NCBI RefSeq assembly: GCF_003334815.1
Contig: NZ_QOWO01000014.1
Length of the DNA stretch: 64,000 nt
Reading direction: 5' to 3' (one strand)
Source of the DNA: Escherichia coli
GTDB taxonomy: Bacteria; Pseudomonadota; Gammaproteobacteria; Enterobacterales; Enterobacteriaceae
The notes under the pieces were generated by a model that ran no database searches, was not told the origin of the DNA, and saw only the letters and a program-made list of their open reading frames with translations. Shown here piece by piece: positions 1-56,864 of this stretch; the stretch's first letter is position 1, and the number at the start of each line of letters is the position of its first letter. The position numbers were made by a program, and so were the translations under genes.

Positions 1-87
1 TCAGATTCATCAGCATACTGTCATGACCCGCCACCGGGATAACCTGCATTTCAGTAACAACAGGCGTCGTAAATTGAGAACTCATAT
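1..87 (-). CDS. gudD: Glucarate dehydratase, N-terminal 29 codons only (gene runs off the window start)
   Basis: Reverse complement of 1..87 translates [28 protein letters not shown], closely paralogous to the gudX N-terminus; lies downstream of gudP-gudX on the same strand. Confidence 0.8.
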
Positions 88-105
88 TTATGTCCTTTTT
101 CAGAA

Positions 106-1446
106 TCAATGACGGCCGAAAACGGGACGTTTACGGTCAAAGGTCCAGCCGGGGATCAGGTACTGCATCGGACCTGCGTCGTTACGCGCACCGCCAGGCA
201 GACGTTTATAGGCCTCATGTGCCTTTTGTACCTGTTCCCAGTCCAGTTCCACGCCCAGACCGGGCGCATCAGGAACGGCAATTTTTCCGTTTTTAATCTC
301 CAGCGGATTTTGGGTCAGGCGACAATCGCCCTCCTGCCAAATCCAGTGGGTATCGATAGCGGTAGGATTACCCGGTGCCGCCGCGCCCACATGGGTAAAC
401 ATCGCCAGAGAGATATCGAAATGGTTATTAGAATGGCAGCCCCAGGTCAGCCCCCAGTCGTCGCAAAGCTGCGCCACACGGACTGCACCGGAAAGCGTCC
501 AGAAGTGCGGATCGGCAAGTGGAATATCTACCGCATTGAGCATCACCGCATGACCCATTTCGCGCCAGTTGGTGGCGATCATGTTAGTCGCGACGGGCAA
601 GCCGGTCGCCCGTCGAAATTCCGCCATCACTTCACGTCCGGAGAAGCCCTGTTCTGCGCCGCATGGATCTTCGGCATAGGTAAGAACATCATTCAGCCCT
701 TTGCATAAAGAAATGGCTTCATCAAGCAGCCATGCACCGTTGGGATCAACGGTAATCCGCGCATCCGGGAAGCGTTTCTTCAATGCACGAACAGTGTCGA
801 TTTCTTGCTCGCCAGGTAACACGCCGCCCTTAAGTTTGAAATCTTTAAAGCCGTAGCGATCCTGTGAGGCTTCCGCCAGACGCACAACGGCTTCGCTGTT
901 CATTGCTTTCTGATGCCGCAACTGATACCACTCATGGTTGCCCGGCGTATTTTCCACATAAGGAAGATCGGTTTTGGTCCGATCACCGATATAAAACAGA
1001 TAACCGAGGACGGTAATAGCCTCGCGTTGCTTGCCTGGCCCTAACAGTTCGCAGACCGGAACATTCAGCGCCTTACCTAGCAGGTCAAGCAAAGCGGCTT
1101 CCAGCGCCGCCACGGCGTTAACGCGTAATTCAAAGGTCCAGGCACCTTTACCGAAGGTATCAAAATCGGCGGCCTGATTACCTTTATGCACCTGCTGGAC
1201 CACTTTATTCAGTCGCGCAACTTCCTGGCCCAGAACCATCGGAATAGCATCGACAAGCGTCTGATAAATCACATCTCCGCCCGGCGCTTCACCAATGCCG
1301 GTATGCCCGGCGTTATCGGTGAGTACCACAATATTGCGGGTGAAATATGCGTTATGTGCCCCACCAATATTAAGCAACATGCTGTCATGCCCGGCCACCG
1401 GAATGACTTTCATATCAGTAATAACAGGACTGGATTGTGTCGCCAT
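106..1446 (-). CDS. gudX: Glucarate dehydratase-related protein (enolase superfamily)
   Basis: ORF track 106..1461; product begins [24 protein letters not shown], so I trim the start to the ATG at 1446; 1 nt from gudP stop. Confidence 0.88.
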
Positions 1447-1447
1447 C

Positions 1448-2800
1448 TTATTGCCCCGCAACAGGTTTCAACTCGATACGCTTGATATCGCCCACCAGCA
1501 CCAGGTAGCTCAGTACCGCGATTAAGGCATGAACACCAACATAAATCAGCGCCCCATTAAACGAGCCAGTCGTGCCAACGATATAACCAATTGCGATTGG
1601 CGTGACGATGCCAGAAATGTTACCGAACATGTTGAACAGGCCACCGGAAAGACCGCTGATCTCTTTTGGCGCGGTATCTGCCATTACTGCCCAACCCAGC
1701 GCCCCGATGCCCTTACCGAAGAAGGCCAGCGCCATAAAGCCGATGATCATCCACTCAACGTTGACGTAGTTGCAGAACACCATCACCATCGACAGCAACA
1801 TGCCCATTACGATCGGTGTTTTACGCGCAATGTTCAGCGATCCCGTGCGGCGCATCAGCCAGTCGGAAATAATCCCACCCAGCACACCGCCGATAAAACC
1901 GCAAACCGCCGGAACGGAAGCCACAAAGCCCGCTTTCAGAATCGACATCCCGCGTGCCTGCACCAGATAAACCGGGAACCAGGTAATAAAGAAGTAAGTC
2001 AGGGCGTTGATACAGTACTGACCGATATAAACGCCGATCATCATCCGTGACCCTAGCAGCTGTTTGATCTGCCCCCACTTCACGCTGAACGGCACTTTAA
2101 CTTTGGTGTTTTGCTGATCCATATTGATCAGCGCACCACCCGCGGCGATGTACTCCAGCTCTTTCTTATTTACCCCCGGATGTTGATTTGGCTCGTGGAT
2201 GACTTTCAACCAGATAAAGCTGATGACAATCCCCAGACCGCCCATAAAGAAGAAGACGTGTGACCAGCCCACTTCATGCGTCAGCCAGCCCATAATCGGC
2301 GCGAAGATCACCGTTGCGAAGTATTGAGCGGAGTTAAAAATCGACACCGCCGTTCCCCTTTCCTGCGCCGGAAACCAGGCCGCAACAATGCGACTGTTGC
2401 CGGGGAAAGATGGCGCTTCAGCAAGCCCGACCAGGAAGCGCAGCGTAAACAGGGCAACGATAATGCCGAATCCACTAAAGATATCGACGAAGCCTTGCAG
2501 CAAGGTAAACATCGACCAGATAAAGATCGACCAGAAGTAGACGCGTTTTGAACCAAAACGGTCCAGCAACCAGCCACCAGGGATCTGCCCGATAACATAA
2601 GCCCATGAGAAAGCAGAGAACACATAGCCCATTCCCACGGGATCAAGGCCGATATCTTTGGCCATTTCCGAACCGGCGATAGAGAGCGTAGCGCGGTCGC
2701 CGTAGTTGAAGGATGTGACGATAAACAACATCACCACTATCCAGTAACGAGCATTTGTGCGTTTTTCCACACTGCTCGCAGCCTGACTTAAAGAACTCAT
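1448..2800 (-). CDS. gudP: MFS transporter, D-glucarate/galactarate permease
   Basis: 450-aa ORF with 12-TM hydrophobic profile and MFS motif GDRATLS...; first gene of gudP-gudX-gudD. Confidence 0.9.
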
Positions 2801-3234
2801 TGTTGCACTCCTGAAAATTCGCGTTAGCCACGCTCACTCTGGACTGCGACATCGCCAGGAAATCAGAGGTGACGTAGGGTGTTTTTTGCCGTTTTTATAG
2901 GTCGTTCGCCGAATACGGCGCGTGTTTATATCTGGCAATAGCAGTATAAAAAGCGCGCCATAGCGGCTCACCGTGCAACAACACAACATTAATGCGTTCA
3001 ATGAGGCCCGATTTTGGCATTAGCCCTGGACGGTGGAATCCACTTCACGGAAATGAAAACAAGAACAAGAAAGGAAGGGTTAAAACGAAGAAATAAAGAA
3101 GAGTATGAAATGGATCGCTTGACTCCAGGCAAACGCCAGTAAAAATCCGCGCTATGAAGCAGTTTTTACTGGCATTTGCCTGAAAAGATTCGATTCAGCA
3201 CCGCTAAAACGACATTTACCGCTCGCTGAACATA

Positions 3235-3684
3235 TCAGGACAACAGCGTGCCCCACTGTTCGACCCACGGATTTGATTCCGTTTCCGGTTCCGGGTTCTC
3301 ACTGGCGTCAATCAACAGCATTTCGCCAACCCGCTGAGCGCTCTGTTCCTGCAACAAGGCATCGAACTGTTTGCCGCCATTGCAGAAATTCACATAACTA
3401 CTGTCGCCGAGCGCAATCACGCCATAACGCAGATTCGGCTGGAAGCCCAGACTATCTTTGATTCCCTGAAAGAGTGGCACAATGCTATCAGGAAGGTCGC
3501 CCTGCCCGGTCGTGGACGTAACCACCAGAACATACTTATCCTGATAGGGCAGCCAGTCGCTTAATTCAGGATCTTCAAATACCGTTGCTTTGTGGCCCTG
3601 CGCGGTCAGAATCGCTTCCGCTTCTTCGGCCACTAACAGTGAATTCCCGTACATGGTGCCGACAAAAATACCAATTTCCGCCAT
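3235..3684 (-). CDS. yqcA: Flavodoxin-like protein
   Basis: 149-aa ORF, N-terminal [15 protein letters not shown] and [11 protein letters not shown] flavodoxin FMN-binding signatures. Confidence 0.88.
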
Positions 3685-4855: not shown

Positions 4856-5224
4856 AATAAAAAAAGGGAGCACTGTATTCACAGCGCTCCCGGTTCGTTT
4901 CGCAGCATTCCAGCTACTTTTGTTGCTCCCTGCTCATCCTTGACAACTTTTCCTCTGGCCTTGCGGCCAATCGTTCATCCTGAACTATTGCTTCCTGCTC
5001 ACACCACCCCGATGTGATACTTCATCCTGAAGTGTCCCTGGCCTTCCTGACCCACCGAATCATCCTGACCGGTTCTCATTCTCCATCCTGGAGGTGTCCT
5101 TTAACGCGTCCTGCGTCATCCTCTTCGCTTCATCCAGAAGCCTTTCCCTGAAACACCATCCTGGTGTGTCCTGCAGAAGTGTCATCATCCTGATGTTCAC
5201 TTCGTTGTCTGACTCCCTGTCGAC
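4856..5224 (-). ncRNA. csrB: CsrB small RNA (CsrA-sequestering); ends approximate to within about 5 nt
   Basis: Minus strand carries about 18 repeats of CAGGA(U/A)G / AGGA motifs (seen as catcctg / tcctg on plus strand 4930..5220) and ends in a GC hairpin plus U-run (plus 4857..4889); no credible ORF. Confidence 0.85.
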
Positions 5225-8372: not shown

Positions 8373-8928
8373 TCTCCGCTCCCCCGGTGACGTTTGTTGC
8401 CGGGTTTTCTCGTTTTTGGTCACTTACTCATCAACTCATTTCATTTGTTATATGAATGTTTCTTACCACCCTCACGCGACAAATATCATCACAGTTAATA
8501 TGTCATACAATTTATGTTGCAACGCAAACGTTTCCCTATTTTCATAAACCGTATTTTATCGCTATGAAAAAGAAATTATCGCCATGATTAACTAAAAGTA
8601 TTGATTTTTTCAGTTCAACCTACATATATTGCGCGCCCCGGAAGAAGTCAGATGTCGTTTAATGGGCAAATATTGCCCTTAAATTCTCTTTTACTTTTGA
8701 TTTACAGAGTAAAGCGTTGGGATAATCTATCTTCCAAGTAGATTATTGTATTTGAGATCAAGATCACTGATAGATACATAACTTGTGTGTATCTTTCCGC
8801 CCTCAAATTATTACGGCGGTAAATGATTAAGCCATCGCCGATAGACAGATTTCATTTTTACGGTCAGGCACCTTCCCGGGCTGAACTGGCTAAAAGCTGA
8901 ATTATTTGCATTCCTCCAGGAGAAATAG

Positions 8929-23395: not shown

Positions 23396-23601
23396 ACTTC
23401 CTGAGCCGGAACGAAAAGTTTTATCGGAATGCGTGTTCTGGTGAACTTTTGGCTTACGGTTGTGATGTTGTGTTGTTGTGTTTGCAATTGGTCTGCGATT
23501 CAGACCATGGTAGCAAAGCTACCTTTTTTCACTTCCTGTACATTTACCCTGTCTGTCCATAGTGATTAATGTAGCACCGCCTAATTGCGGTGCTTTTTTT
23601 T
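23396..23601 (+). ncRNA. gcvB: GcvB small RNA; ends approximate
   Basis: Starts ACTTCCTGAGCCGGAACGAAAAG, contains the G/U-rich seed tgtgatgttgtgttgttgtgtttg (23461..23484) and ends in hairpin gcaccgcctaattgcggtgc plus T8; divergent from gcvA as in the known arrangement. Confidence 0.85.
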
Positions 23602-26595: not shown

Positions 26596-26693
26596 GCCTG
26601 ATGCGCTACGCTTATCAGGCCTACATAACTCCTGCAATATTTTGGATTTGCATGATTTGTAGGCCGGATAAGGCGTTCACGCCGCATCCGGCA
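26596..26693. repeat. Pair of REP elements (BIME-like) in the tcdA-mltA gap
   Basis: gcctgatgcgctacgcttatcaggcctac (26596..26624) and gtaggccggataaggcgttcacgccgcatccggca (26659..26693), classic REP palindromes in opposite orientation. Confidence 0.7.
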
Positions 26694-28085: not shown

Positions 28086-28162
<77 letters not shown>

Positions 28163-56580: not shown

Positions 56581-56668
56581 AAAAAAAACCTGCGCATCCG
56601 CGCAGGTTGGTGCAAGAGACAGGGTACGAAGAGCGTACCGAATAATCTCACCAATCAATACCTCTGGG
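56581..56668 (-). ncRNA. omrA: OmrA small RNA (88 nt)
   Basis: Minus strand reads CCCAGAGGTATTGATTGGTGAGATTATTCGGTACGCTCTTCGTACCCTGTCTCTTGCACCAACCTGCGCGGATGCGCAGGTTTTTTTT. Confidence 0.87.
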
Positions 56669-56782: not shown

Positions 56783-56864
56783 AAAAAAAACCTGCGCATC
56801 TGCGCAGGCTGGTGTAATTCATGTGCTCAACCCGAAGTTGACTTCACCTATCAATACCTCTGGG
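56783..56864 (-). ncRNA. omrB: OmrB small RNA (82 nt)
   Basis: Minus strand reads CCCAGAGGTATTGATAGGTGAAGTCAACTTCGGGTTGAGCACATGAATTACACCAGCCTGCGCAGATGCGCAGGTTTTTTTT; shares 5' and 3' ends with omrA. Confidence 0.87.

Follow-up and report, generated by a model that had tools for sequence, protein, structure and literature searches.

GudX, a strongly conserved paralogue of glucarate dehydratase in the Escherichia coli gudPXD locus, is a likely partner subunit of GudD

Downstream of a permease gene, Escherichia coli carries two adjacent genes for proteins of the glucarate dehydratase type, gudX and gudD, of which only gudD is thought to encode an efficient enzyme; what, then, has kept gudX in place? 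The question is a pointed one: even in the best-studied of bacteria, this long-kept and tightly constrained copy, its active site whole, has only a putative role. We approached it from a 64,000-nucleotide stretch of E. coli DNA (the window; contig NZ_QOWO01000014.1), at the first positions of which gudD is cut short. The gudPXD locus and its gudX/gudD pair are already known and are ordinary for E. coli; a study from 1998 reportedly described both, along with the difference in activity between the two products. GudP imports D-glucarate and related diacids, and GudD would be the efficient D-glucarate dehydratase of the enolase superfamily, yielding 5-dehydro-4-deoxy-D-glucarate. The catabolic pathway for D-glucarate and galactarate is the subject of Hubbard et al. 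1998 (PMID 9772162), as that paper is cited by later ones, and being able to use the two compounds is important to Enterobacteriaceae when they colonise the gut (PMC3877842, PMC11775122).

Over positions 1..3300 the window matches E. coli K-12 MG1655, as well as many other genomes of the species, at 100% nucleotide identity; this is the K-12 gudPXD (ygcZYX) operon at the same locus, and the window merely stops gudD after codon 28. RefSeq annotates this interval of MG1655, flanked by yqcA and barA, as gudP, gudX (named 'enolase C-terminal domain-like protein') and then gudD ('glucarate dehydratase'). The 28 gudD codons in the window correspond exactly to residues 1-28 of MG1655 GudD (WP_000098255.1), and the gudD sequence beyond the window edge was taken from the MG1655 record; GudX of the window is identical to RefSeq WP_000235391.1, and the gudP product matches TIGR00893 with 539 bits against a cut-off of 395. 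Coordinates are collected in Table 1, together with RNA genes found elsewhere in the window; CsrB occupies a region in which several short mechanical open reading frames are therefore not genes. In one strain, E. coli WP7-S17-ESBL-04 (NZ_AP022177.1, 965795-970407), the match to gudP-gudX-gudD is otherwise identical but comes as two parts set about 1.3 kb further apart; the annotation beneath it includes an IS3-like IS1203 transposase, indicating an insertion sequence in the gud region.

Table 1. Positions of the gud locus features and of RNA genes in the window
Feature	Position	Strand	Details
gudD 5' end	1..85	-	ATG 85..83; 28 codons + 1 nt, truncated at window edge
gudX-gudD spacer	86..105	-	20 nt, TTCTGAAAAAGGACATAAAT, between TGA and ATG; Shine-Dalgarno-like AAGGA upstream of gudD start
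gudX (ygcY), glucarate dehydratase-related protein	106..1446	-	complete, 446 aa; ATG at 1446, TGA 108..106
gudP, MFS galactarate/glucarate/glycerate transporter	1448..2800	-	450 aa; RefSeq annotation
gudP upstream non-coding region (yqcA-gudP gap)	2801..3234	-	434 nt, annotated yqcA stop to gudP start
CsrB sRNA	4856-5215	-	Rfam RF00018, 380 bits, full length; between syd and yqcC
GcvB sRNA	23396-23601	+	Rfam, above gathering score
ES036 (CssrF) sRNA	26617-26659	-	Rfam, above gathering score
tRNA	28086-28159	+	Rfam, above gathering score
OmrA/OmrB sRNA tandem pair	56581-56668 and 56783-56864	-	Rfam, above gathering score

The permease gene, gudX and gudD run on one strand at the yqcA / barA locus with short spacers. 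These spacers (1 nt and 20 nt), together with a consensus scan that found no convincing internal promoter or terminator within gudPXD, are consistent with a single operon, and from this layout we infer that gudP, gudX and gudD are transcribed as one. At the gudP-gudX junction (CAATAAGATGGCG) the gudX ATG stands one base past the gudP stop, an arrangement typical of translational coupling. A mechanical reading frame for gudX opens earlier, at TTG 1461 inside the end of gudP, and would add five residues (MRGNK); ATG 1446 is the start given by RefSeq and corresponds to residue 1 of the crystallised protein after the tag. The promoter and regulatory region of the operon presumably lies in the gap upstream of gudP, where a simple sigma-70 scan in the orientation of the locus returned no site on the plus strand. 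Beyond the window, 13 nt past the gudD stop, MG1655 has a palindromic hairpin with a perfect 10-bp stem (AAACCGGCTC...GAGCCGGTTT; 8569-8594 of the MG1655 locus record L001); gudD and barA converge there, and the hairpin probably terminates transcription in both directions. As to regulation, the operon would be induced by glucarate, galactarate and glycerate through CdaR (SdaR), as Monterrubio and colleagues reportedly described in 2000.

The first-pass annotation had read the two genes, from their N-termini, as a tandem pair of paralogues directly downstream of the permease gene, and this reading stood: the two peptides it quoted match the sequence exactly, and their local alignment scores 96 under BLOSUM62, a value reached by none of 20,000 shuffles of the 27-mer (maximum 44) and none of 2,000 shuffles of the whole of GudX (maximum 39). 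Even the 28-residue GudD fragment alone matches the NCBIfam glucarate dehydratase model TIGR03247 (E=1.6e-7). A full-length alignment, which it had proposed for when upstream sequence became available, gave 63% identity between GudX and GudD (282/446; 78% positives, E=0), so the genes are adjacent paralogues in an operon-compatible arrangement. Their DNA is 64% identical, with about 40% matching third codon positions and a longest exact run of 20 nt; the low identity, nearly saturated synonymous sites and short longest run indicate an old duplication without recent gene conversion. We considered conversion for a 30-residue stretch common to both proteins and rejected it, as only 35-40% of third positions match there; the identity of this stretch instead reflects constraint at the protein level.

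To place the duplication we fetched GudX-type loci from Erwinia persicina, Enterobacter, Mixta calida, Lonepinella koalarum, a Neisseria species, Entomomonas moraniae and Gilliamella apicola in addition to E. coli, and built a neighbour-joining tree of 19 sequences: 16 X and D proteins, the crystallised 3N6H and 4G8T, and Pseudomonas putida GlucD (1BQG). The tree resolved two clean clades, X and D, with like internal branching and with 1BQG on the D side; each spans Enterobacterales, Pasteurellaceae, Orbaceae, Entomomonas and a Neisseria species. Mean identities are 77% within X, 81% within D and 63% between them, and the two structures sort accordingly, 3N6H scoring 788 bits to GudX versus 624 to GudD, and 4G8T 895 bits to GudD versus 655 to GudX. 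The duplication thus predates the split of Enterobacterales, Pasteurellaceae and Orbaceae. By its position in the tree and its signature, which includes the elements ATNWREM and FDRKRP, GudX belongs to the GlucDRP clade (4IL0, 4GYP chain C, 3N6H/3N6J/3PFR), of which it is the founding member: 4IL0 and chain C of 4GYP have the very same sequence, and 3N6H falls in with it.

Two local departures accompany this picture. The pair of Neisseria sp. CCUG17229 (locus L006, 6001-9017), with a 350-nt spacer between its genes, is nearest to Pasteurellaceae sequences even though it resides in a betaproteobacterium, which suggests horizontal transfer of the whole cluster. In the GudD-type proteins of Entomomonas and Gilliamella (L007, 7362-8696; L008, 7381-8715) the sequence GEVPCVGTVTKTL stands where all other D and X proteins have GE(I/V/A)PGG(E/D)..., a divergence local to the N-terminal domain.

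Does GudX still possess the means of catalysis? It has the two-domain architecture of the enolase superfamily, with Pfam MR_MLE_N at residues 39-136 (E=3.4e-8) and MR_MLE_C at residues 187-404 (E=1.5e-50). The first-pass annotation had suggested checking its catalytic residues against GudD, and GudX proved to keep every residue checked: 14 of 14 positions (H32, T103, Y150, K205, K207, D235, N237, E260, N289, D313, H339, N341, H368 and R422, GudD numbering), including those that the Catalytic Site Atlas gives for 1ECQ (K205, K207, N237 and H339), are identical in GudX and invariant across all 19 X and D sequences. In its own numbering, GudX has the KxK motif at the end of barrel strand 2 as K204 and K206 (GudD K205 and K207), the metal-ligand positions on barrel strands 3, 4 and 5 as D234, E259 and N288 (GudD D235, E260 and N289), and the His-Asp dyad with its Asn as H338, D312 and N340 (GudD H339, D313 and N341). 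From the GlucD structures of Gulick and colleagues we take D235, E260 and N289 to be the Mg2+ ligands of GudD and D313 to pair with H339, and we assume that H32, T103, Y150, N237, N341, H368 and R422 contact the substrate in GlucD. The acid-base pair of GudD would then be Lys207 and His339-Asp313, with Mg2+ held by Asp235, Glu260 and Asn289.

This intact apparatus has to be set beside a difference in activity. Hubbard and colleagues reportedly found in 1998 that GudD is an efficient glucarate dehydratase and that the product of ygcY, GudX, is poorly active, so that the intrinsic activity of GudX appears to be low. The idea that GudD alone of the pair is the efficient enzyme also agrees with curation: GudD passes the 828.7-bit cut-off of the equivalog model TIGR03247 with 898.7 bits, GudX falls short with 748.1, and the PDB calls GudX 'glucarate dehydratase-related protein'. 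This shortfall explains the unspecific RefSeq name of GudX, 'enolase C-terminal domain-like protein'. Could a missing catalytic residue account for the low activity? We considered this and rejected it; with all of them retained, the activity gap between GudX and GudD does not come from such a loss. Here GudX differs from typical pseudo-enzymes, and a regulatory or structural role for it is only putative.

Has selection been guarding this intact protein? Among four enterobacterial genera dN/dS is 0.04-0.11 for gudX, 0.03-0.09 for gudD and 0.03-0.14 for gudP; judged from these ratios, purifying selection on GudX is about as strong as that on GudD. Of the 449 alignment columns, 259 show no variation among the X sequences of the eight species and 293 show none among their D sequences, and the gudX reading frame is intact in every lineage examined. 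Every one of the 5,426 complete E. coli genomes has a match to this part of the locus (gudP and gudX with the start of gudD), and in 5,409 of them the match spans at least 80% of the query. A view of GudX as a decaying duplicate, a pseudo-enzyme with no selected function, could draw on its score under the family cut-off and on the rare frameshifted or chimeric gudX-gudD products in databases, but it founders on the low dN/dS, on so many invariant columns among eight distant X-clade sequences, on the unbroken reading frames and on the near-universal presence of the region in E. coli, and we regard it as effectively refuted by the selection analysis.

The same evidence bears on whether GudX simply stands in for GudD, as a redundant dehydratase that works normally on glucarate in vivo, its low activity in vitro being an artefact of a missing partner or the wrong conditions. 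A complete active site, similar constraint on both genes and co-transcription with gudD, as the operon layout implies, would all suit such an isozyme. Mere redundancy, however, seldom lasts as long as this, over hundreds of millions of years and with two clean clades that mirror each other and have fixed differences; NCBI curation keeps X-clade proteins out of the equivalog model, and the original biochemical study reportedly found GudX poorly active. We consider a back-up role improbable.

Long products that head the homologue lists deserve a separate word. Proteins of 583-690 aa that look like gudX-gudD 'fusions' might be taken as Rosetta-stone evidence for an interaction, and we rejected them as such: they are aberrant gene products, mostly singletons. 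The entries concerned are P0001-P0005, P0007 and P0010. P0002 and P0003 carry a frameshift near the 3' end of gudX that leads to read-through of the 20-nt spacer; P0004 and P0007 are deletion chimeras in which non-equivalent positions are joined at short micro-homologies (GA; A-D), P0007 occurring on 23 E. coli contigs; and P0010, from Phytobacter, belongs to the GudD type and has part of its own sequence duplicated internally; it is not a gudX-gudD fusion.

Where, then, do the clades part? Fifty alignment columns have non-overlapping residue sets in X and D, and 23 of these 50 fall within 78-118, where 4.6 would be expected (hypergeometric p=3e-14). Relative to GudD, the GudX segment at about 78-116 has a 2-residue insertion and a 2-residue deletion, and fixed D-to-X changes within it include R88H, R99K, Q102W, D105E, H111N and T114A (GudD numbering). 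Fixed changes elsewhere are S29G, three residues before H32, and E146T, A257T, D294N, Q297E, M319L, S322A, M328L and N439R. The segment belongs to the N-terminal capping domain. Enzymes of the enolase superfamily close this domain over their active site, and it generally sets substrate specificity, as reviewed by Gerlt, Babbitt and Rayment; residues 78-116 of GlucD, to go by its crystallography, presumably cover the active site. The segment is nearly invariant within each clade (D consensus ...GRG.QTFD.R.TIHVVT.IE...). GudX is like GlucD (E. coli 1EC7/1ECQ and P. putida 1BQG) in its two-domain architecture, its 63% identity, KxK motif, metal ligands, His-Asp dyad and substrate contacts, but differs from it in falling below the TIGR03247 cut-off, in forming a separate clade, in the remodelled 78-116 segment and in its fixed changes.

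The main rival explanation is an independent enzyme. Here GudX would act on an acid sugar or diacid of its own, imported by GudP or arising in the pathway, with the remodelled loop setting its specificity and its co-crystallisation with GudD incidental. Such a role would fit the clustering of clade-specific changes in the capping domain, where 21 of 27 columns of the segment are invariant in the X clade, and the catalytic and metal residues kept by every X-clade member; strong purifying selection on an intact site would suit it equally well. The putative glucarate contacts (H32, T103, Y150, N237, N341, H368 and R422) are nevertheless unchanged in GudX, which argues for the same or a very similar ligand. 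PDB 3PFR is reported to be the X-clade protein of Actinobacillus succinogenes with D-glucarate bound, and GudX is not known to have an alternative substrate. The arrangement of the genes, to which we turn now, also weighs against this rival, and on balance we think an independent enzyme unlikely.

In all 8 fetched lineages the X-type gene has a D-type gene in its own cluster. These lineages, like one published annotation considered with them, were selected through GudX-type proteins, so that a GudX-only genome would surface just by chance; in these cases the X gene always comes with a D-type gene and never alone, which speaks against a separate enzyme. Permease-X-D is the commonest order, frequently with garL, garR and a gene for glycerate kinase after it and a divergent garD upstream. 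Around the gud locus, Enterobacter, Erwinia and Mixta show the gene order and the neighbours of E. coli. Lonepinella koalarum (L005, 1582-7338) has D - tctC - tctB - tctA - X, a tripartite tricarboxylate transporter standing in place of the MFS permease, from which it follows that the pair survives a switch of transporter family; downstream, the opposite strand carries a CdaR-like regulator (Diacid_rec/HTH_30) as well as garK, garR and garL.

For Dickeya solani, a published supplement annotates garD, then gudP-gudX-gudD-garL-garR-garK, then barA, and a Tn-seq study found that gudX matters for growth on galactarate (PMC10202176). We considered this phenotype as a hint of galactarate activity in GudX and discarded it as not usable for GudX function: with gudP-gudX-gudD-garL-garR-garK head to tail on one strand, polar effects on garLRK account for it.

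What role do the structures suggest? The GudX sequence is that of PDB 4IL0 and of 4GYP chain C, each deposited under the name 'Glucarate dehydratase-related protein', and full-length GudD is identical to 1EC7. The entry 4GYP holds chains of wild-type GudD sequence together with GudX chains, which means that the two proteins were crystallised together; within the library searched, GlucDRP, 4GYP, 4IL0 and 3N6H led to no relevant paper. Weak paralogues that act as partner subunits are a general concept, and the gud pair is likewise adjacent, co-inherited and co-crystallised, with one efficient member. We accordingly rank most likely, and hold to be the more probable account, that GudX is a retained paralogue serving as a partner subunit in a GudX-GudD hetero-tetramer. 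GudX is an ancient paralogue that is not decaying, its catalytic apparatus whole, under strong purifying selection and co-inherited with a GudD-type gene, departing from GudD chiefly in the remodelled capping segment at about 78-116. GudX and GudD may assemble into a mixed tetramer like that suggested by the 4GYP co-crystal, in which GudX would be a weakly catalytic or differently tuned partner subunit and not a second independent glucarate dehydratase. That the hetero-oligomer functions in vivo is what we infer from these several lines; a co-crystal alone is no proof of a tetramer in the cell.

A stronger form of this partner-subunit reading, which we hold only tentatively and which may well not be right, has GudX as an obligate partner of GudD and the mixed tetramer as the physiological enzyme across many Gammaproteobacteria, with the X-specific capping loop (about 88-116) tuning activity, specificity or regulation. 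If it is true, the enolase superfamily would include a conserved heteromeric dehydratase whose second subunit carries a full but poorly used active site. If the GudX-GudD complex is the real enzyme, models of the glucarate pathway would be refined, and the engineering of strains for glucaric acid would be helped.
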